Both the position numbers and the translations under genes were made by a program. The notes beneath the pieces were generated by a model, which saw only the letters and a list, made by a program, of their open reading frames with translations, was not told the origin of the DNA and did not search any database. Positions 1,672 through 55,378 of a DNA stretch of 64,000 bases are shown here, in pieces. Every line of letters starts with the position of its first letter. The first letter of the stretch is position 1. This DNA is from a virus (Duplodnaviria > Caudoviricetes), in IMG/VR virus record IMGVR_UViG_3300029288_000084, positions 32,001-96,000 of that record. One strand, given 5' to 3'.

Positions 1672-3777
1672 TCAAATATATATTAATTTATCACTTAGTA
1701 AAATTTCCTTTGGTTTAACTGATATTATAATATCATTTCGATTTACGATAATTGAATGGTCTTCTGTTATTTCAACTTCTTTTCCGTTGTATTTTACTAA
1801 ATACATTCGTTTATTAACTTTATGTTTCATAATATATTTTATTTTTTTTTCTTCAACTTTTCTATTATCGATATTATAAGACAAACAAGTTGTATTTCCT
1901 ATAACATGTTTTATATAATTATCTATCCCTCTAATTTCAATTATTCCAAAAAGCTGATTATACAAATCACTAATTTTAAAATTACCTTGATTTGTTTTTA
2001 CAATAGTATTAAAACCGCAGCTGTCAGTATCGTTGTAAATAATATCAATGTATTTTCCTAGTTTTGTTTTTAACCAATCAGAAACATATCTAATAACCAA
2101 TTGTCCGGTGAGTGTAATAGCAGATGCAATTCGAATGTCATAATATCTAAAATATTCATTGGCAAATGCACCATATCCTGAATTTAACAAGATTTTTAGA
2201 GCTTGCTGTTTCAAATCAAGACTTTTTACTTCAGATTCTTTTCTACCAGCTTTTATAGCCTCTTTTAATTGCTTCTTGATTTCAATTCTTTCATTATATT
2301 TTTTCTCCATAATTTCGCCAACAGTACCTTGCTTATCTCTTTTCCAAAATCTTCCATTTGGCGTATAGCAGTAATTGTACTTTTTAAGAAATTCTTGTAA
2401 TTGTTTATATACTTCGCTTGTATCATCCAATAACAAATCTACAGAAGAAAAAAGAGGGTTCAAAGCTGTATATTCACGCAACACATCAGGTGCAATAAAA
2501 TCACCAAATCGAATTGCATCTGATGGCGATAACCCAGCTTTATTGACGATTGTTTCTTTAGATAAATTGCAACCAATAATATTGTTTGGATATAGAGAAT
2601 TTGCATCATAAGCTACAACCCATTTATACAATCCGGGTTTTACTAAATTTACAAAAGCACCTGGATATTCTTGTTTCTCAGTATGTTTTTTTGTTGGTGG
2701 TATTTCAATATTTTTAATCTTTAGTGCATTGTAAATAATAACATCCCAAAGTTTTACAGGAGAAAATATGTCTCTGTATATGACTCGAGATTCATATGCA
2801 ATAGTCATAGCCAACTCAAGTAATTGTAATTTGTTATTTAGAAGTGAAATTAATTCAACATCCCAAATGTTATATTCAATATACCTTTGAGGATCCTTTT
2901 CCCAAAGTTCTTTTAAATCATATTCATCGTATTTTATTTTTTGTTTGTTCAATTCAACAAAACAGATATTGTCTAACGAATATGATTCTTGTTTTTCATA
3001 TACAAATTTCTTATACAAGTTAATGTAATCGAGAATTGGAATATAAAAATCGTAGAAATTTATTTCTTGATTTATCATCCTTATACTGGTTTGATTGACC
3101 TTGCCAACTGGGGATAATTCAGTTAATGCCCGTTCACCCAGTAATTTATAAATCCGATTTGTTAGATACGGAATATCAAAAAGATCCACATTCCAGCCAG
3201 TAATGAGATCCGGTGATAGAGTTTTAAATAAGAAAATAAACGCTTGAAGCAATTCACCTTCAGAATTCATTTTTTTGAAATTAATCTTTTCTTTATCAAT
3301 ATTGAAAGTAGCCTTTTCTTTATCAAAATCCTTTAGTGAAAGTACATAGAAATTTCCTGTTTTCAAATCCTTTATTGTAATTGCACTGATTGGATAATTT
3401 GCCTTATTAACATTTGGAAAACCTTCTTCATTCAAAACCTCAATATCAATAATAACTGTTTTTACTTGTGAGATATCATAGTATTGATCTTCTTTACCCC
3501 ATTTCGTTTGAATAAACTGATAAATTGGTGAAATATCACCATACAAAGGCATTTCATCCCGATAAGTCTTTACAAAATCATAATATTCTCGAATGGTTTT
3601 AATATGCTTATTTAAATTGATACCATTCTGTGAAATATGACCTGTGTATTCATTTGACTCAGTAAAAATTTCAGCAGGGAAGGGAATTTTATCTTTGAAT
3701 TTTTTCCCGTTTCTATAACCAAGAATTACAAGATCATTTGATAGATTGATGATGTTAGTATAAAATTCTTTTGCCAT
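1672..3777 (-). CDS. DNA polymerase B (gp43-like), N-terminal half, ending in a split-intein N-fragment
   Basis: Exo motifs DIEV and GWNVDLFDIPY; polymerase motifs YDANSLYP, KILLNSGYG, YNDTD; then intein SCGFNT...ITEDHS. Confidence 0.96.
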   Translation of the reverse strand: MAKEFYTNIINLSNDLVILGYRNGKKFKDKIPFPAEIFTESNEYTGHISQNGINLNKHIKTIREYYDFVKTYRDEMPLYGDISPIYQFIQTKWGKEDQYYDISQVKTVIIDIEVLNEEGFPNVNKANYPISAITIKDLKTGNFYVLSLKDFDKEKATFNIDKEKINFKKMNSEGELLQAFIFLFKTLSPDLITGWNVDLFDIPYLTNRIYKLLGERALTELSPVGKVNQTSIRMINQEINFYDFYIPILDYINLYKKFVYEKQESYSLDNICFVELNKQKIKYDEYDLKELWEKDPQRYIEYNIWDVELISLLNNKLQLLELAMTIAYESRVIYRDIFSPVKLWDVIIYNALKIKNIEIPPTKKHTEKQEYPGAFVNLVKPGLYKWVVAYDANSLYPNNIIGCNLSKETIVNKAGLSPSDAIRFGDFIAPDVLREYTALNPLFSSVDLLLDDTSEVYKQLQEFLKKYNYCYTPNGRFWKRDKQGTVGEIMEKKYNERIEIKKQLKEAIKAGRKESEVKSLDLKQQALKILLNSGYGAFANEYFRYYDIRIASAITLTGQLVIRYVSDWLKTKLGKYIDIIYNDTDSCGFNTIVKTNQGNFKISDLYNQLFGIIEIRGIDNYIKHVIGNTTCLSYNIDNRKVEEKKIKYIMKHKVNKRMYLVKYNGKEVEITEDHSIIVNRNDIIISVKPKEILLSDKLIYI
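1675..2022 (-). mobile_element. Split intein N-fragment (116 aa) of the DNA polymerase
   Basis: Begins at Ser after YNDTD, has block B TEDHS, and ends at a stop codon without a terminal HN. Confidence 0.9.
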
Positions 3778-31993: not shown

Positions 31994-33586
31994 TCAGGAC
32001 CCATTGTTTGCCTCCATGTTTATTTCTTTGACTTCGTAAGGAAAACCTTCTTTACTATAATACTTTAAACGAGCATTGTGATGTATAAATGAAAAATTAT
32101 CTACTCTGTGCATTCTACCTGTTTCTTTGTTGAGTTCCATTACAGATAGATTATCAACTATATCTATAACTGTGAGTCGTTTTTTTGACTCATGAATTCT
32201 TAGACCTCGACCAATAGCTTGCAACACTCTTATCTTTGATTTGCTTCCAGCAGCTGAAACAATATTGTGTAGATTTTTAATATTAATTCCAACGCCAAAA
32301 ACTTGAACTGATGCAACAACGATGCAGTTAGAATCTCGTTCACAATGAGCTCTTACTTCCTCTCTTATTTGAGCAGGAGTTGAACCATCGATGTAAAAAA
32401 CTTTATTTATACCTTTCGTAAGTTCAGTTATTCGATTAAATAAATACTGGCCATGTTCAATTCGAGTAAACAAAACAAGGGTATTTTGTTTCATCATAGA
32501 AACTAATCTACAAACCGCTTGATTTCTTCTTATGTGACTGTAGATATATTCAATTTCTTTTTGAAAAGCTTTTTTATTATCACCCTGAGCTAACGCTAAT
32601 TGACGCATTAATTGACATTCTCGTTCAGGATATTTAAATACGTAAGGAAATATTTTTATCGGTGATAAGATACCTTTTTCTATCAAAGTTTTTGTTCTTA
32701 TGATTTGATAGATTTCACCTACAAGTCCATTCATTACTAAATGATGAACTGGCCAATCATCAGTTGTTCCAGTCGCACCTAAACGCCAATCAGCATTTAT
32801 ACAACTTTCGGCAATTTCAATCAAGCACTTTGCTTTTCCATATTGATGAAATTCATCGAGAATAATTGCTTTGAATCTTTTGAAATAGTTTATCATAGAG
32901 CCATAAACTGGCTTGATATGTATACTTTGTATAGATTGCCAAGTTGATATTGTAATTTGTTTCGAAGTGTTTTTTTCCAATCCACTCATAATAATGTGAA
33001 TTTTATCACCAATAACATTGTATTTTTCATCATAGTGAATAAAATCACTTTGCATTTGTAATACAAGAGAAGTTGTTGGAACAACAAGAAGAATCTGTTC
33101 ATCAGATTTCAAAACATGTTCCAATAAATATTTGATATAGAGATAATATGCAAAAGATTTACCAGAGCCAGTTGGTGAAATAGCAACAAGACGCTTCAAG
33201 TATAAAGCAGCTTTTAGTAGATCTTTCTGATGCTCGTAAGTTCCTTTGATATCATCAGGTGGTGTGATAGATGAAATAAAATTTTCTATTTCAGAAATAG
33301 GAATTCCTTTATTTATATCATCAAATGAATTATCAATTTCATATGTGATACCTAATTCATTTAATTTTTGGATTAATTTATCTTTTAATCCAATATACAT
33401 TCTACCAGTTTTTTTCTGATATAAGTAAATTTTACCATCCCAAACACCCGCCCTGAATTTTGGTTGATACCAACTATCAGGTAGTATGTAAGACAAAGAT
33501 TCAACAAGATTTTTTTCTATCCCTTCATCTTCAGGAATGGCTAAAAGGTAACTTTCGTTAAGTTTTGTGATTGATACGTTTGGCAT
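31994..33586 (-). CDS. uvsW: SF2 DNA helicase UvsW
   Basis: WDGKIYL, PTGSGKS, DEFH, GATGT, QAIGRGLR. Confidence 0.95.
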   Translation of the reverse strand: MPNVSITKLNESYLLAIPEDEGIEKNLVESLSYILPDSWYQPKFRAGVWDGKIYLYQKKTGRMYIGLKDKLIQKLNELGITYEIDNSFDDINKGIPISEIENFISSITPPDDIKGTYEHQKDLLKAALYLKRLVAISPTGSGKSFAYYLYIKYLLEHVLKSDEQILLVVPTTSLVLQMQSDFIHYDEKYNVIGDKIHIIMSGLEKNTSKQITISTWQSIQSIHIKPVYGSMINYFKRFKAIILDEFHQYGKAKCLIEIAESCINADWRLGATGTTDDWPVHHLVMNGLVGEIYQIIRTKTLIEKGILSPIKIFPYVFKYPERECQLMRQLALAQGDNKKAFQKEIEYIYSHIRRNQAVCRLVSMMKQNTLVLFTRIEHGQYLFNRITELTKGINKVFYIDGSTPAQIREEVRAHCERDSNCIVVASVQVFGVGINIKNLHNIVSAAGSKSKIRVLQAIGRGLRIHESKKRLTVIDIVDNLSVMELNKETGRMHRVDNFSFIHHNARLKYYSKEGFPYEVKEINMEANNGS

Positions 33587-34532: not shown

Positions 34533-34892
34533 TTACTCTCTTATAGCAATTCTAATACATATTGCATATTGTATCTTTTTTTTATCATCCATTTTTATAG
34601 GAATTGTTCCAAGTTGATAAAATTTTATTTGTTTATTTTCAAAATAATAATTTAGCATTTTCAATATATCTGGAAAATTTTCATATATGATATATTCTTG
34701 CTGAAGTAATATATCTGTTTGATAAGAATTTGCTACCCATTCTCTTTCTCCTTCTCCTTCTGTTGGAAAAGTCATTAAACCATAATAAGTAAATCTTGGT
34801 TCTTGTTTTTGTAAATAATTATGAAAAGCTGAGATAATAGCATTTTCTGATGTTAACATTTTATTCTCCAGCGAGAAACTTGCGGAACTCAA
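34533..34892 (-). CDS. Hypothetical protein
   Basis: ORF; probable start MLTS near 34859. Confidence 0.55.
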   Translation of the reverse strand: MSSASFSLENKMLTSENAIISAFHNYLQKQEPRFTYYGLMTFPTEGEGEREWVANSYQTDILLQQEYIIYENFPDILKMLNYYFENKQIKFYQLGTIPIKMDDKKKIQYAICIRIAIRE

Positions 34893-35262
34893 TCATATTT
34901 TTGATAGCCCATCCACGATCCCGGAAATTGCTTATTGTTTCAGAAATGAATTTTATTAAGGAAGATTGATTCGAAATTTTTTCTTTTAATTCTCGAACTT
35001 CTTCATCTCCATCTACAAATATGAGAAGCTCTTTTTGTGTATCTGGAATTAGAGAATATTTTGTTCTGTAAAACACAATTTTTTCAGCATATAGTTGTTC
35101 ATATTGTTTTTGTAATTTGTTTATTGTAGTACTTTCACCTAAAAAAATGTTGATGTATTTTTGAATGAGCAAGGGGTTTTCAGAAGCATCAAAATCTAAT
35201 TTATTATGATCAATTTTCAATTCTTTGTTGATAGCTGTTTGTAGTTCTTTAATAGTAATCAT
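34861..35262 (-). CDS. uvsY: Recombination mediator UvsY
   Basis: LKID..LD......P....KY; C-terminal RGWAIKNMIEFRKFLAG; near uvsW. Confidence 0.88.
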   Translation of the reverse strand: MITIKELQTAINKELKIDHNKLDFDASENPLLIQKYINIFLGESTTINKLQKQYEQLYAEKIVFYRTKYSLIPDTQKELLIFVDGDEEVRELKEKISNQSSLIKFISETISNFRDRGWAIKNMIEFRKFLAGE

Positions 35263-49004: not shown

Positions 49005-50687
49005 TTATGCATTAATTAAAACTTCACTGAAGTTGACATCAGTTCCAACAGCAATGAAGTTTAATTTGATAAACTCAGCAGCACGAGCAGGTTTGATATA
49101 AATATCACCAACAAATTCATTGGCATCTATGATTGCACCAGTATTGTTTGTAGTATCACAAATAACCTTGTAATCAAAAATGCCTCTGCGACCTTTGATT
49201 CTACGAAGGAAAGGTTCAACCATTAACTTGAATAATGTTCTCTGATAATCATCATTGAATTCAAAAATCATCCACTTAGCAGCTGAAGAAATAGCTTTTT
49301 CTAGAACAATGAATAGTCTTCGGACATTGATTCTATCAAAAGCAGATGGAGCAGAGAGCATTGTTTTCTGACCCCAAGCAACATTTCCTTCACCTGGGAA
49401 AGCAACGATTGGGTTGATGTTGTTTTTGTATAATGTATCTCTGTAAGCTTTTGTAGGATAAATAGCAAATTTGATAACATTCTTGATTTGACCTCTGACT
49501 AAACCTGCAGGTGGATACCATGCATCAGTCAATGTCTCAGATCTTGCAAGAACACCAGCCATATCTCCTGACATTGGAATCCAACGATACTTGTCAGTAT
49601 ACTTATCGTAAATATACTTCCACTGTGCATAGATTGCAGCATAAGAAGAGTTTTTATTCAATGTGGTGTTTTTGTATGTAACACAAGCTGTGATTGAAGT
49701 TGAAAGATCCCCAGCCATAACAGCAGAAGCAGGAATATCTAAAATAGCCATTGCATCTAAACGAGTGTCACAAATATCAACTATATATCCTTGGCTTACT
49801 TCGTCATTGTTAGCACCGTCAAATAGTAAGCTAATATCAAATTCTTCTGGATTTGCAAATAGATCATAACCTAATTCGATATCAGCAACTGCAGGGGTTC
49901 CATCAACACCACCAGCAAGATAAGTTGCTTCAAAAGACATTGGGCTTAAAGCAATTGTAGTATTATCAAAAGCATAAATCCACTGAGACTTTTGATTGAT
50001 GACATTCTCAATATAAGTAGATTTGCCATATGAATCTTTTGCATCAGGATCCATATCAACTAGCCACTTTTCTACTAATGTCCAATTATCATCTAAATCA
50101 TTTTTTGCCATAACAGCAATTGCCAATTGATCGTATTTGTCATATGTATTCGAAACAGGTGCATATTCAAAATTGTTGACAAATGTTAATGAACCAGCAA
50201 TTATGTTGGCAGTTGCAAAATCATCTGCAGTTGCTAAGGCAACCTTGATTTTGGTATTGCCAAGAGCACCAGGATATTTAGCAACAATATGTAACTTTTC
50301 ATGAGCAGCAAAAGTAATTGTTGGAATGCCAGAATAATTTGGAATATAAGGATTTGATCCTATTGTTAATACAGCAGTAGCTTGACCTTCATCAGCAACA
50401 GCAATACCAGCATTTTTAGCTGTATCATGATCTACAGCTCTGACTAGATACAGGCTACTTGCGTAACGTAAAAATTCTGCAGCTGAGTGCCAATGCTGAA
50501 AGTTAGTGTCAAGTGGCAATCCGAAATAAGAACAAAGTTCTTTTTCAGTTGTTACTTGTTTTCTTTCAAAACAAGGACCCCAAGAAAAGTTACCTGCCAT
50601 ACCAGCAATAGTAGTTGCTATTTGAGCTACGCCTAATGTGGTATCAAACTCTTGAATTGTAACCGAAGGACTTAAACTAAATGCCAT
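49005..50687 (-). CDS. Tail sheath protein (gp18-like)
   Basis: SPSV...E.D, FSWGP, WYPPAGLVRG, FDRINVRRLF, FEFND, IKPAR. Confidence 0.97.
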   Translation of the reverse strand: MAFSLSPSVTIQEFDTTLGVAQIATTIAGMAGNFSWGPCFERKQVTTEKELCSYFGLPLDTNFQHWHSAAEFLRYASSLYLVRAVDHDTAKNAGIAVADEGQATAVLTIGSNPYIPNYSGIPTITFAAHEKLHIVAKYPGALGNTKIKVALATADDFATANIIAGSLTFVNNFEYAPVSNTYDKYDQLAIAVMAKNDLDDNWTLVEKWLVDMDPDAKDSYGKSTYIENVINQKSQWIYAFDNTTIALSPMSFEATYLAGGVDGTPAVADIELGYDLFANPEEFDISLLFDGANNDEVSQGYIVDICDTRLDAMAILDIPASAVMAGDLSTSITACVTYKNTTLNKNSSYAAIYAQWKYIYDKYTDKYRWIPMSGDMAGVLARSETLTDAWYPPAGLVRGQIKNVIKFAIYPTKAYRDTLYKNNINPIVAFPGEGNVAWGQKTMLSAPSAFDRINVRRLFIVLEKAISSAAKWMIFEFNDDYQRTLFKLMVEPFLRRIKGRRGIFDYKVICDTTNNTGAIIDANEFVGDIYIKPARAAEFIKLNFIAVGTDVNFSEVLINA

Positions 50688-50822: not shown

Positions 50823-50853
50823 TACTAAATAAATACCTTAATTATTATATAAT
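50823..50853 (+). promoter_or_regulatory. Promoter TACTAAAT-N17-TATAAT driving the plus-strand unit
   Basis: Exact motif; the only plus-strand copy I found. Confidence 0.75.
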
Positions 50854-50879
50854 GTATTTGATGAATAAGAAGAATTTAA

Positions 50880-51460
50880 AATGTGAAAGAGTTGATGATT
50901 TCAAATCAACAAGGCAGGTAAATCTTTTCAGCTTCTGTTTCTTTGATTTACCAAATCGCCAAAAGATCACGCGCGTAGGAATATGATCATGCTAAACAGA
51001 AGCGCTAATACTTTGGCTGTATCATTACGAAACAGCCCCCGTAGCAGTGCGATCATGCCTTCAGGGGTGAAGGGTCAGGGATCGTACGGCCAGCCCAAAG
51101 GAGACAAGCTCACTCCCCGGTACGATAAGCTGGGGCTTTATGTTGTTTTAGGGGAGATGAAAAAAATAACGGTTTTTGGGAGTATTTTTTCCAGCTTTGC
51201 CACTGATCGCTTGCGAGATGGGCAGGGGAAGTCGACCGAAAAAAATATTCTTAGTTTTGTGGTGTGTACTACCATGATGCTGATCACATTATGGTTCGCC
51301 AAAAACATCCACTTCTCCGTGATTAGGAGACAGCAAGCATGCTGCTGGAATTATTAAAAAATGCTCGTTATTCTGGGCCAAATCCAGTTCCAGAATTCGC
51401 TCTTAGGCTACACCGAGTTTAAGAGTGTTATACCAAGTACGTTAAGCTTGGTTGCAATAA
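50880..51460 (+). ncRNA. Putative large structured non-coding RNA (about 580 nt), class unassigned
   Basis: Visibly GC-richer than its flanks; more than 12 stems with G-U wobbles on the plus strand; a pseudoknot; promoter directly upstream. Ends are approximate. Confidence 0.75.
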
Positions 51461-51478
51461 TAAAAAGGGGAGTTAAAA

Positions 51479-51694
51479 ATGTACGAACGGTATGATCATC
51501 ATGGAAAATTAGTTTGGGTTAGGAAAGATTTGAAAGGAAAGCATCGCGAACATTGTCTTTGTTTCAGTTGCAGTAAGTTGAATATTGAAGATCGAGAAAA
51601 AAATTGTCCTATTGCAAATGCTTTATTTGCTCTTTGTGTTCAATTCAATCTTACTACTCCAGTGTTTGAATGCCCTGAATTTAAAGAGGTATAA
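51479..51694 (+). CDS. Small Cys-rich protein (putative metal-binding)
   Basis: RBS GGGGAG; HCLCFSC...CPIA...C...ECPEF. Confidence 0.75.
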   Translation: MYERYDHHGKLVWVRKDLKGKHREHCLCFSCSKLNIEDREKNCPIANALFALCVQFNLTTPVFECPEFKEV

Positions 51695-51695
51695 A

Positions 51696-52064
51696 ATGAC
51701 ACATGAGGAAATTGAAAAAGATCCAAGATTTATTGTATTGTCAAATTATAGTTCAAAAGTATACGAGTATAAGGTTGCTGTATTTAGTTTACAAGTCAAA
51801 TATGATTTGTTAAAGAAAGAACAAGAATTCAAAAAGCAAAGTGTGATTGCTACGATTGCTGCAGAAAAAACAGAAGATGGGAAAAAGAAATTTGGCAATG
51901 AGGATCAAAGACAAACTGAGTTTCAAAAACGATTAGAGAATGATGAAAACTATCATTCTAATGAAAAAGAATTGCAGTTACTTTATGCTGAAATCCAGAG
52001 AAAAGTAATTGAAATTTCATACTTGCTTACCGAAATAGAAAATTATCGTTTATTCGTAAAATAA
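51696..52064 (+). CDS. Coiled-coil hypothetical protein (122 aa)
   Basis: ATG at 51696 with GAGGT RBS; the track ORF starts further upstream. Confidence 0.7.
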   Translation: MTHEEIEKDPRFIVLSNYSSKVYEYKVAVFSLQVKYDLLKKEQEFKKQSVIATIAAEKTEDGKKKFGNEDQRQTEFQKRLENDENYHSNEKELQLLYAEIQRKVIEISYLLTEIENYRLFVK

Positions 52065-52075
52065 AAGGAGAAAAA

Positions 52076-52380
52076 ATGTCAGAAATCAAAATCATTGTTT
52101 TAAAAACAGGTGAACAACTTTTAGCTAGGTTGAATATGGAGATGGTACAATTGTGATGGAAAAACCAGTTATGATGTTTCCTCTCCCCGGTAATAAGATT
52201 TCATTTAGAGATTGGATTATTGGAGCAAAATTAGATAAGGTAGCTGTTAAGAATGAAAATATCAATGTTGTAGTTGATCCTTCAAAAGAAATAGAAGATA
52301 TTTACGTTAGCAGTACTTCTAAAATTCAAGCACCGCCTCTTGGTGCGAAGATGTCTATTCTAGGAAACAAGCAATCTTAG
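52076..52380 (+). pseudogene. Sm/LSm-like protein gene with an apparent 1-nt frameshift near 52127
   Basis: AGGAG RBS. MSEIKIIVLKTGEQLLA continues in the -1 frame as VEYGDGTIVMEKPVMMFP...W...VVVDPSKEIEDIY...SKIQAP, matching the pattern I recall for Sm-like proteins of T4-like/cyanophages. Confidence 0.6.
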
Positions 52381-53816
52381 CCAATTCTAATAACTGATAG
52401 CATTTTTTCACTATCACCGTCATCATCATCCATAAGAGTTGCAGGTGAATTTTCCATACCATTTGACATTACTATAGCAGATACTTGGGAATCTATTTGA
52501 ACTTGATGTTCTTTTAAAAATTTCTCTCTAAAACTGATTGGCGCTTCTATGAATTCATCTAAAAACCCAGTTGATTGAACACAAGAGAAAAATACCAATC
52601 CCATAACCATATCATCGTGATAACCAGTTTCAGCTTCGTAACTGTTATTTTTTCTAACAAATTTATAAAATTCACTTATTGTATCAAAGTCATTGACTAT
52701 TAACTTTTCATATTCCATCAATGTTCTTAAATTGCCGCAGCCAACTCTTTTTGTTCTTGTTGTTGTTCTAAGTCCCAATTCTTTTTTATTTTGTTCCATA
52801 TAAAGCATAGAATCAGTTCCTATATCGTTAGCTAAAATATCAAGAACATCTTTTCCAAAACCTATGTTATTTTCAATGATAGTTAAAGTGTTCTCACCGC
52901 CGTACATTTTTATGAGTTCATCATAAATTGTTGCATAGTGTTGATATGGACATTCAGAATCTCGATAAGTTGCAACTTGTTCATATGGGCTTGTAGAAAG
53001 ATCAATAACAGAAATTGTATAGAAATCTTGTTTTTTACCTTCGCTTGGATCTCCAACTATAGCGTAGTAATGACCTGGTATGACTTTGCCCAATGCCTCA
53101 TCCTTTTTGAATAGTATTGGTTCTTGATAAATTTTTAACTTATCTTCATAGTAAGTTCGAATTGGAGTTTTGTGAGTTAATTCAGCTAGCTTTTTACCGC
53201 CAATTAAAGTGTCTGAGGAACCTAGAATTTGACAATCATATTCTTGGTTCCACATCATTTCGCCGATGTTGCTTATTGTTAATTTCTTAAATGCTTCATC
53301 TCTACCAGGAATTTCATTCCATGCAACTTTCAAATACTTGAATTGACTGCGACCTTCAACAGCTTCATTCCAGAATTTAGCAAAGTGATTATATCCAATT
53401 GGAGTGGATGAAAGTGTAATTCTTGAATGCTTGGCTGAAGAAATTGTAGGATAAATGGATGCTAAGAAGTCAGCAGCCATATTAGAATTTGTTTTTGAAC
53501 AATTGTGGCAAGTTATTCCATTGCCTATATAATGGTTTCCGTCCCGTACATTTAATAAATCATAGAAAAAATTCTCTTTTTTAACTTTTTCAATTTTTTT
53601 AATTCTTTTATTTTGAACTATATCTCCAATATTTAAATTTTTTGCTTTTACAAACATATTATTTTGTTTTATTTTATGTTCATTTGAACATTCAACTACA
53701 GTTTTATTATTAAAAATTATTTTTAGTGATTCATTTTTAATTGTTATACTTATACCATCAAAATCTTTCCAACCATTTTCTGTTAAAACTTCGTAATCAG
53801 ATGTTAATATTTTCAT
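52377..53816 (-). CDS. Terminase large subunit (gp17-like), C-terminal half, starting with a 105-aa split-intein fragment
   Basis: ...NGITCHN|CSKT...SIYPTISS, SSTPIGYNHF, QEY, GDPSEG, IENN, HDDMVM. Confidence 0.95.
   Translation of the reverse strand: MKILTSDYEVLTENGWKDFDGISITIKNESLKIIFNNKTVVECSNEHKIKQNNMFVKAKNLNIGDIVQNKRIKKIEKVKKENFFYDLLNVRDGNHYIGNGITCHNCSKTNSNMAADFLASIYPTISSAKHSRITLSSTPIGYNHFAKFWNEAVEGRSQFKYLKVAWNEIPGRDEAFKKLTISNIGEMMWNQEYDCQILGSSDTLIGGKKLAELTHKTPIRTYYEDKLKIYQEPILFKKDEALGKVIPGHYYAIVGDPSEGKKQDFYTISVIDLSTSPYEQVATYRDSECPYQHYATIYDELIKMYGGENTLTIIENNIGFGKDVLDILANDIGTDSMLYMEQNKKELGLRTTTRTKRVGCGNLRTLMEYEKLIVNDFDTISEFYKFVRKNNSYEAETGYHDDMVMGLVFFSCVQSTGFLDEFIEAPISFREKFLKEHQVQIDSQVSAIVMSNGMENSPATLMDDDDGDSEKMLSVIRIG
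53502..53816 (-). mobile_element. Atypical split intein, long C-fragment
   Basis: CSNEH block B, FYDLLNV, terminal HN, Cys+1. Confidence 0.9.
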
Positions 53817-54693
53817 TAATTTTTCTCATTAGTTTATTAAAAACTTCTTCTTTATTTTTGTAATAATCATGTTCCCAAATTTCTATTACTCTATATCCAG
53901 CAAAAATAGCAGCATTTACTTTTTTCTTCCAATACACTCTATATTCTTTGGGTGTTATACCTCTATGTTCTTTATTTTCATCCGGAAATAAACTTTCATG
54001 ATAATGCCAATATGTACCATTAAATTCTACAATTAATTTTAAATCTTTTATTGTAAAATCATAAGAGTAATATTTTGTTTTTTTATCAACATCATTGAGA
54101 ATAAATTCATTATTAAGTGGGTTAAATCTAACACTAGATTTTAATTTATTATCTAAAGCATTGTAAATATTCCAACTTAGTTCCTTATGCCATTTTGATA
54201 TACTATTCTGCGAAGCTTCTCTATTCATTATTGATTTTTCTGATTGGAAAGAATTTATAATTCCATACTTTTTTAATAAAGTATTTTTTCTTTTTTCTTT
54301 ACACTTTACACTTTTAGATCTTTGTGCAAGTATTTTGTTTCTTTCAATTACTTCATTTTTATGTAAAATATGCCAATTGTGAATTTTTGTTCTTTTTTCT
54401 TCTGTCCATAAATAAGAAGTTTTATCTCTACCTATAGTCCCTTCTTGATATGATTTAGTAATACATTCTAGTGAATTACACCTTTTAAAAAATCCCTTGT
54501 TAATACTAATAAATACTGAAGATTTATTACAATATTTACATTTAGGAATATTACTATGCAAAATATATTTTGCATAGTAATCTTTTGGTTGTATTGAATG
54601 TTTTTTAATATGTTTGGTAAAATTTGAATTTTTTGCATTTTTATAAAATATCTTACTACAAATTTCACAAGTTATTATTTGATTATTTTCCAT
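53797..54693 (-). CDS. Free-standing Vsr-like homing endonuclease between the terminase halves
   Basis: YDFTIKDLKLIVEFNGTYWH...IWEHD; N-terminal Zn fingers. Confidence 0.8.
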   Translation of the reverse strand: MENNQIITCEICSKIFYKNAKNSNFTKHIKKHSIQPKDYYAKYILHSNIPKCKYCNKSSVFISINKGFFKRCNSLECITKSYQEGTIGRDKTSYLWTEEKRTKIHNWHILHKNEVIERNKILAQRSKSVKCKEKRKNTLLKKYGIINSFQSEKSIMNREASQNSISKWHKELSWNIYNALDNKLKSSVRFNPLNNEFILNDVDKKTKYYSYDFTIKDLKLIVEFNGTYWHYHESLFPDENKEHRGITPKEYRVYWKKKVNAAIFAGYRVIEIWEHDYYKNKEEVFNKLMRKINENINI

Positions 54694-54694
54694 G

Positions 54695-55378
54695 TTATTT
54701 AATAAAAACTAAATGAGTTGTACCTATTAGTCTATTAGCAAAATCAGACATTTTAATGTTTTCTACAATTCCTGTTTTTTTATTTCTAACTGTAATAACA
54801 GTATTGCCTAAAAAACATTCATCCCAGTATAGATTTTTGATTGGGAAACCAGATAAAGCATCTTTTGATGTTGCAGCTGAAATAGATCTTGAACCATTTT
54901 CTAATTCAAAACCGCCTGATTGCCAACTAACAACACCTTGTTGCATCCAGAAAGGAAGACCCTGGAACATCTTTTGCATAGTAGAAATAATTTCAAAGGC
55001 TGTCTTCTCTTTGTTAGCAACAATACCACAAATTTCATAAGGAAAGAAATTCATCAAATAAGTATAAACACCCGATGTAACAGTTGTTTTACCTGATTGT
55101 CTTGGATTCATGAAGATGTTAAAACGATTCTCCATCATCATGTTGATCATAGTTGTTTGATATGGTCTGGGTTCGAATAAAACCCATTGTCCAGAATCTA
55201 ATGACAATGTTTTTAAGTAAGTTTTAAAAAAATAGTGAATTCCAGTCTTTGGTTCTTTACATTTTCTAATTTCGTCCAGTTGGTATTGGCTGTAAGGAAT
55301 TTCAATTCCGGCTTTACGAAGGTTGAATTTTCCCTGAAAATAATCAGTTTTTTGAGGTTGATATACTATTTCATCCAT
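54695..55378 (-). CDS. Terminase large subunit, N-terminal half, ending in a 40-aa split-intein fragment
   Basis: PRQSGKTT, LPFWMQQGV, ELENGS, LYWDE|CFLGNT. Confidence 0.95.
   Translation of the reverse strand: MDEIVYQPQKTDYFQGKFNLRKAGIEIPYSQYQLDEIRKCKEPKTGIHYFFKTYLKTLSLDSGQWVLFEPRPYQTTMINMMMENRFNIFMNPRQSGKTTVTSGVYTYLMNFFPYEICGIVANKEKTAFEIISTMQKMFQGLPFWMQQGVVSWQSGGFELENGSRSISAATSKDALSGFPIKNLYWDECFLGNTVITVRNKKTGIVENIKMSDFANRLIGTTHLVFIK
54698..54817 (-). mobile_element. Atypical split intein, short N-fragment (40 aa)
   Basis: CFLGNTVITVRNKKTG... immediately after the Walker B DE. Confidence 0.88.

Follow-up and report, generated by a model that had tools for sequence, protein, structure and literature searches.

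Probable modular RNA leader ahead of three small genes, including a broken Sm-like gene, in a distant T4-like phage

The DNA analysed here (the window) comprises 64,000 nucleotides, positions 32,001 to 96,000 of the IMG/VR record IMGVR_UViG_3300029288_000084, a 152.9-kb contig of approximately 32% GC from a distant T4-like myovirus, with an estimated genome completeness of 85% and a sheath protein that shares approximately 40% identity with the sheaths of Caulobacter, Pseudomonas, and Campylobacter T4-like phages. Nearly all open reading frames (ORFs) of at least 90 aa in the window lie on the minus strand, in a late-gene run, and the stretch from 50,860 to 52,380 is the sole clear plus-strand unit inside these genes. 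It is flanked by the sheath gene (49005-50687, minus) and by a split terminase gene, the C-terminal half of which occupies 52377-53816 (minus). The ORF map therefore agrees with the first-pass annotation, which had described one inverted unit between the sheath and terminase genes and three tightly spaced ORFs; these were found at 51479-51694, 51696-52064, and 52076-52380, with gaps of 1 and 11 nt. In the direction of the unit, a GC-rich, well-folding region of approximately 600 nt is followed by ORFs for a Cys/His-rich protein of 71 aa and a coiled-coil protein of 122 aa and, in last place, by a frameshifted ORF. ARAGORN detected no tRNA or tmRNA in the window. The features are as follows (L002, L004, and L030 are relatives of this locus).

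50848-50853, plus strand: TATAAT hexamer, candidate -10 element, aligning with a TATAAT upstream of the L002 and L004 leaders
50891-50910, plus strand: hairpin P1 (GUUGAU...AUCAAC)
50912-51011, plus strand: conserved pseudoknotted RNA domain of approximately 100 nt, with three helices that covary relative to L002
50917-50924 pairing with 50945-50952, plus strand: helix Pa, kept in L002
50931-50940 pairing with 50994-51003, plus strand: helix Pb, kept in L002
50965-50969 pairing with 50984-50988, plus strand: helix Pc, kept in L002
51012-51114, plus strand: middle hairpins from minimum free energy (MFE) folds (GGCUGU...ACAGCC; GUGCGAUC...GAUCGUAC enclosing CCUUCA-GGGG-UGAAGG)
51115-51148, plus strand: terminator-like hairpin CCCCGGUACGAUAAGCUGGGG with a U-rich tail, from a terminator scan
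51149-51478, plus strand: 3' leader segment specific to this phage, identical in the independent assembly L032
51479-51694, plus strand: 71-aa Cys/His-rich protein
51696-52064, plus strand: 122-aa coiled-coil protein with the motif DGKKK[FY]xN[ED]DQR
52076-52156, plus strand: Sm-like gene, N-terminal fragment of 26 codons followed by TGA
52129-52380, plus strand: Sm-like gene, C-terminal part, in the -1 frame

The first-pass annotation had the unit driven by a non-late promoter; the TATAAT hexamer, which was not called by a consensus promoter scan, may mark the start of transcription of the unit. The order of the Cys-rich, coiled-coil, and Sm-like genes, followed by a convergent terminase gene, is kept in L002/L003, L004, and L030, and hence the three-gene cassette is a stable feature of a rare lineage. 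Both flanking genes are also present in L002/L003 and L004, and the terminase end is present in L030. The gene order is apparently kept in the P0003 and P0004 contigs as well, as judged by gene sizes, and in L041 and the P0010 contig at least the Sm-like gene converges on a minus-strand gene, which is the terminase gene in L041. The RNA region and the genes have a common strand and orientation in the window, L002, and L004, and the cassette proteins of the window and L002 share 31-69% identity. Searches for further phage relatives with the sheath N-terminus, the Sm-like alignment, and the coiled-coil alignment yielded few new loci.

The first protein of the cassette is widespread: viral contigs yielded 22 relatives of it, and the protein collection 33 clusters. 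Five of its residues are invariant (H7, L27, C28, C43, and P61), the near-invariant ones include H8, H22, R23, C26, C31, and C65, and it is probably a small metal-binding protein. Its AlphaFold2 model is confident (pLDDT 94.3) and found no match in the PDB by Foldseek or VIA-align, nor did its sequence profile; the protein belongs to no Pfam family. Relatives of 65-73% identity are encoded among early or nucleotide-metabolism genes (PTPS, kinase, ThyX, DNA methylase), with neither cassette partner nearby. The coiled-coil protein, which belongs to no Pfam or PHROG family, has homologs in L002, L004, L030 (87% identity to the window), P0001-P0004, L029, and L039, and the distant ones adjoin a Rad52-family gene in L029 and lie among small early-type genes in L039. 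A weak Atlas lead connected this protein to UvsY (0.89, with UvsY on 15% of the cluster members). This lead was discarded, given that the true UvsY is encoded at 34861-35262 of the window, that the two proteins have no similarity, and that profile comparison gave a probability of 0.7%.

The last ORF had been assigned in the first-pass annotation, from a sequence pattern, to a phage Sm-like family, and its gene had been described as frameshifted; both statements held up. The C-terminal fragment matched PHROG 527 (E=6.6e-6) and a family HMM (64 bits, E=1.7e-18 to 2.1e-18), and the confinement of the PHROG match to profile positions 29-90 of 97 implies an absent N-terminus. The missing part is supplied by the upstream fragment, which aligns with residues 1-20 of intact homologs and scores 19 bits against the family HMM. 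The intact homologs in L030, L002, and L004 have 99-105 aa, and both window fragments align end to end with them. At the level of DNA, the window reads AGG-TTGAA at the break versus AGGATTGAA in L030 and L031, so that the break is a 1-nt deletion of one A just after the AGG at 52127-52129, at a site that is not a homopolymer. Programmed frameshifting was rejected as an explanation, because no slippery heptamer is seen at the break and the relatives have plain in-frame sequence. No second Sm-like copy was found in the genome, at its estimated completeness.

The family itself is real: an HMM search of 1.8 billion representative proteins returned 619 Sm-like clusters, mostly of 90-110 aa. A profile of 80 family members, seeded with the L030 ortholog, matched 3BY7_A with E=1e-23 over profile positions 1-88. 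Among these 80 aligned relatives, 45 matched Pfam DUF6561 and 15 matched Sm_like at E<=0.01; the L030, L002, and L004 proteins scored 15.8-25.6 bits against DUF6561, below the curated cut-off of 27. The AlphaFold2 model was made for the intact L030 ortholog, which is 83% identical to the C-terminal fragment of the window, and showed six strand segments and a helix at residues 71-81 (pLDDT 89.7). Its top Foldseek match was 3BY7 (TM 0.72-0.88, rmsd 1.5-2.3 A), followed by spliceosomal Sm, Lsm1-7, and archaeal Sm chains (TM 0.43-0.54, E=2e-3 to 2e-2). The profile match to 3BY7, together with the match of the model to 3BY7 and then to Sm/LSm chains, confirms the Sm fold. The gene is thus a new, defective member of a known phage family (PDB 3BY7, PF16243 Sm_like, PF20198 DUF6561, PHROG 527/483/431), for which a crystal structure, a pentamer ring in 3BY7, has been available since 2008. 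It resembles that family in the full-length profile match, the bent antiparallel beta-strands with a C-terminal helix, and the length of approximately 100 aa, and differs from it in that the copy here is split by the deletion and leaves no intact ORF of that length. With Hfq and the canonical Sm/LSm rings it has the general Sm fold in common, whereas similarity to them is limited to the weak structural matches, with no match at the sequence level. The helix is C-terminal in the phage Sm-like family versus N-terminal in Hfq and canonical Sm/LSm proteins (PMC3710371). The location of such genes also varies: the gene described here converges on the terminase gene, in contrast to the homolog of Pelagibacter phage Mosig, which is part of the replication module, flanked by regA-type and DNA polymerase genes. 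The homolog of Achromobacter phage Motura lies among hypothetical genes near tRNAs.

Upstream of these genes, GC content rises to 44-49% at 50900-51400, versus approximately 30-35% in the surroundings, and the fold of 50880-51480 was better than that of shuffled sequences on the plus strand (z=-3.7) and less so on the minus strand (z=-1.5). A protein-coding reading of this region was rejected, since the long ORFs that overlie it in the window and in L002 are non-homologous and match no Pfam or PHROG family. The leader of L002 can be aligned with that of the window over the first part only. Hairpin P1 lies at the same place in L002 with another stem (GUUAGCCC...GGGCUAAC), the two differing by 3 compensatory pairs. 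In the domain that follows, the helices of the window and L002 are, respectively, GGUAAAUC/GAUUUACC and GGAAGUC/GACUUCC for Pa, GCUUCUGUUU/AAACAGAAGC and GCAAACUGUUU/AAACAGUUGC for Pb (with one extra unpaired base in L002), and GAUCA/UGAUC and GGGCA/UGCCC for Pc. Of the pairs in these three helices, 17 are the same in both sequences, 5 have changed in a compensatory way, and 1 is lost on both sides together; no pair is broken. The strands follow one another in the order Pa5', Pb5', Pa3', Pc5', Pc3', Pb3'; Pa and Pb thereby cross, and the domain is therefore a pseudoknot. The strands that join the helices, CGCCAAAAG and CGCGCGUnGGAAUAUG, hardly differ between the window and L002. By nhmmer, the domain at 50912-51011 was found only in the window and the L002 lineage, and the covariation therefore rests on a single sequence pair. 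Within these two lineages, the pattern of substitutions is good evidence that the 5' domain is an RNA structure that has been under selection.

The remainder of the leader is a mosaic. Likeness to L002 in the middle hairpin region is limited to a 17-nt stretch, AAGGGUCAGGGAUCGUA. Next comes the terminator-like hairpin at 51115-51148, with 7 bp, 5 of them GC, followed by CUUUAUGUUGUUUU; its sequence recurs in L030, at the start of which 23 nt are identical. The earlier description of the unit as lacking any obvious terminator with a U tail between RNA and ORFs must accordingly be corrected. After this shared hairpin, L030 has approximately 130 nt containing a 68-nt motif, versus approximately 330-340 nt of unrelated sequence in the window. 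This 3' leader segment has no second copy elsewhere in the genome and folds only marginally better than shuffled sequences (z=-1.5; 6 of 100 shuffles were as good). The proposal of one large noncoding RNA likewise does not stand: counterparts in relatives exist only for 50891-51011 and for the hairpin at 51115-51135, and the sequence at 51140-51478 was found only in this phage population. Searches for known or further RNA families were negative within their scope. Rfam 15 gave no match in the whole window at gathering thresholds, and its best matches under relaxed conditions were snoRNA or miRNA models with E>=0.13; among the relatives, nothing significant was found in L002, L030, and L032, and tRNAs only in L124. 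DNA searches of phage and plasmid collections yielded no further homologs, pattern scans of viral contigs returned L002/L003 only, and a scan of genome contigs with the pattern AAAAG-N4-CGCGCGT gave no match.

In the relatives, the first ribosome-binding site is immediately preceded by the 68-nt motif, as one copy each in L030 and L004 and as two tandem copies in L002; the window contains no copy, even in a search with filters off. In this motif, AAGGUU precedes a closing stem of 5 bp that encloses UGAACCUCCU, a variable hairpin, and AAGGUCAUC..GUAAAAAC; the motif also includes an invariant CCUCC complementary to the AGGAG/GGAGG sites downstream. A covariance model found one further copy, in the 239-kb jumbo-phage contig L124, between tRNA genes and with no ORF after it. 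Across the five copies, standard pairs fill all 45 pair cells, covariation scores 0.51 versus 0.18 in shuffles (none of 500 attained 0.51), and pairing falls apart in shifted registers. A Myroides match to the motif pattern, at 23 bits only, is probably due to chance. The pseudoknotted domain and the 68-nt motif are both candidate new motifs from a rare lineage.

It had been proposed that the RNA and the Cys-rich, coiled-coil, and Sm-like proteins form one ribonucleoprotein, with the Sm-like ring on the RNA. Part of this proposal is borne out: the last gene has an Sm-like fold, the three genes occur together beside a structured leader in the window, L002/L003, L004, and L030, and the Sm-like gene converges on a terminase gene in L041, too. 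However, the RNA is not conserved as a unit with the genes, and the absence of conserved linkage, which the first-pass annotation had itself named as grounds for refutation, is largely what was observed for RNA and proteins. The 5' domain occurs in the window and L002 only and the 3' sequence of approximately 340 nt in the window only, so that the gene-proximal RNA differs wholly between the window and its closest relative, L030, and L004 carries all three genes with only the 68-nt motif, which the window does not have. Each protein family also occurs in other phages in which both the other families and an RNA of this kind are absent, the one Sm-like copy found in this genome is broken, and the family has been described as uncharacterised, with RNA binding not reported (PMC3710371, PMC12152347). 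The broken gene occurs in the phage that has the longest leader among the three lineages with a readable leader. We thus regard a joint ribonucleoprotein as improbable. The parts of the locus are real but do not behave as one system. Since the RNA modules vary, the protein families travel separately, and the Sm-like gene is broken, the locus is most likely a structured modular leader, or a set of small RNAs, before three unrelated small early-type genes.

As for what such a leader does, cis-acting attenuation at the 51115-51148 hairpin under the control of the pseudoknotted domain appears to be the best single mechanism, although we hold it at somewhat less than an even chance. According to this model, the locus would be an early- or middle-type, lineage-specific transcription unit inserted backwards between late genes and would start with a long, modular, structured leader, in which P1 and the pseudoknotted domain (the first approximately 150 nt) are followed by more hairpins and by the terminator-like one. 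The folded 5' domain, possibly in response to a signal, would decide between a stop of the polymerase at this hairpin, which would release an RNA of approximately 290 nt, and read-through into the three genes. These genes would be unrelated passengers, encoding a Cys/His-rich protein that putatively binds metal, a coiled coil, and a member of the phage Sm-like family, the last of which the deletion would have inactivated in this phage.

Several observations argue for attenuation. The 5' domain has accumulated compensatory and no disruptive changes relative to L002 despite the divergence of the cassette proteins, the ORFs over the GC-rich region are non-homologous between the two, and a terminator-like hairpin shared with L030 lies between the conserved domain and the genes. 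In addition, RNA and genes are co-oriented in three lineages, the RNA matches no known family, and the parts occur independently elsewhere. The complementarity of the invariant CCUCC of the relatives to the ribosome-binding sites that follow it also fits cis control of the motif's own operon. Counting against attenuation are the restriction of the 5' domain to two lineages and the approximately 330 nt between the terminator-like hairpin and the first gene, which the mechanism leaves unexplained. The copy of the 68-nt motif in the jumbo-phage tRNA array, with no following ORF, points instead to free-standing RNAs and against a cis element.

That copy is one reason why a second reading stands nearly equal to attenuation, though we consider it possible and no better than doubtful: the leader may be an array of free-standing, trans-acting small structured RNAs, cut from or terminated within the transcript, with which the genes merely share a promoter. 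The array would contain one RNA made of the pseudoknotted domain and ending at the 51115-51148 terminator, and perhaps a second RNA within 51149-51478. Modules do come and go as such an array would allow, with the 5' domain and two 68-nt motifs in L002, one motif only in L004, and none in the window, and small RNAs are typically made of a structured domain with an intrinsic terminator behind it. However, the motif in L002, L004, and L030 always lies directly before a ribosome-binding site. Its place in a tRNA array recalls the small stable RNAs found with phage tRNA genes, such as rnaC and rnaD of T4, but the covariance model of the motif finds no match in either of them, and the window itself is without tRNA genes.

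A third explanation, that the GC-rich stretch is a functionless, decaying remnant (left, for example, by an earlier gene or a mobile element) that folds by chance, accounts for the 3' 330 nt, the folding of which is equalled by some shuffles and which has no homolog outside this phage population, and for the long non-homologous ORFs over the region. It has very little probability in our judgment, because it fits poorly with compensatory and no disruptive changes over 22 pairs of the 5' domain, with joining strands that stay nearly identical between lineages whose proteins have diverged so far, and with the better folding of the plus strand than of the minus strand.

Attenuation remains the reading we prefer for the leader, which resembles riboswitch and attenuator leaders in having a covarying pseudoknotted 5' domain, then a terminator-like hairpin, and then co-oriented genes, and is unlike them in its lack of an Rfam match, the 330 nt from hairpin to gene, and its presence in two lineages only. 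More speculatively, and with a chance that we would call no better than doubtful, each of the two motifs (the domain at 50912-51011 with its pseudoknot, and the 68-nt element of the relatives) may define a new class of structured phage RNA, acting as a sensor or else as a small catalytic or decoy RNA. Large, unrelated phages would then exchange them as modules, with operon leaders and tRNA arrays as the sites between which they move.

Had the locus supplied a conserved RNA partner, it would have given a first hint at what the phage Sm-like family does; no such partner emerged here. Its useful yield lies elsewhere, in two uncatalogued, covarying RNA motifs from a rare T4-like lineage and, for one of them, a jumbo phage, as well as in a small, highly conserved Cys/His-rich phage protein whose fold is predicted with confidence and has no counterpart among solved structures.

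A 68-nt RNA motif was found upstream of the first ribosome-binding site in the cassettes of related loci (L002, L004 and the closest relative, L030), and it has a covarying closing stem of 5 bp together with an ACCU/AGGU helix and a CCUCC stretch, both of which are invariant. The motif also occurs a single time within the tRNA array of a 239-kb jumbo-phage contig (L124). Rfam holds no entry for it, and no copy is present in the window.

L002:645-721 and 748-824, 68-nt RNA motif, two copies
L004:438-505, 68-nt RNA motif
L030:63-129, 68-nt RNA motif
L124:3940-4007, minus strand, 68-nt RNA motif

Within the tRNA array, L124:3400-4600 (minus strand) comprises about 1 kb devoid of ORFs and tRNAs. 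Several hairpin elements in this stretch follow the pattern CCGUUGUGCC...GAAAACAACGG, and a weaker second look-alike of the 68-nt motif lies at 3551-3625. In L004, the motif is followed not directly by the Cys-rich gene but by a small ORF (520-615), which, as read by eye, has about 30 codons and is very hydrophobic (MDINLSMTIIFSIGIICLTIIICKLMKKDK).

The 71-aa Cys/His-rich family (window 51479-51694; alignment A12) shows very strong conservation among phages whose GC content spans 27-64%, and the L004 version carries an additional transmembrane helix at its N-terminus. The fold predicted for the 71-aa protein (pLDDT 94) matched no solved structure. For the split Sm-like gene, the following signals could allow a translation restart that produces a fragment of 74-75 aa.

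Window 52139-52142, GGAG
Window 52153, GTG
Window 52156, ATG

Such a fragment would lack the first beta-hairpin and is therefore unlikely to fold.

We found that the adjacent terminase large subunit is split over two ORFs (window 52377-55378, minus strand): the end of the N-half reads ...WDECFLGNTVITV..., whereas an intein-like segment that terminates in CHN|C forms the beginning of the C-half. This arrangement resembles a split intein accompanied by a free-standing endonuclease gene.

Window 53797-54693, endonuclease-like ORF of 298 aa, between the terminase N-half and C-half

A UvsY-like identity was considered for the coiled-coil protein and rejected; a true UvsY homolog is present in the window, and the recombination mediator of the phage is therefore encoded elsewhere than in the cassette. 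In L029, a gene distantly homologous to that of the coiled-coil protein directly precedes a Rad52/Rad22-family gene and overlaps it.

Window 34861-35262, minus strand, UvsY homolog (PF11056, 68.5 bits)
L029:3381-3827, distant homolog of the coiled-coil protein
L029:3791-4624, Rad52/Rad22-family gene (Pfam E=9e-24)

This neighbour may hint at a role of the coiled-coil protein in recombination.
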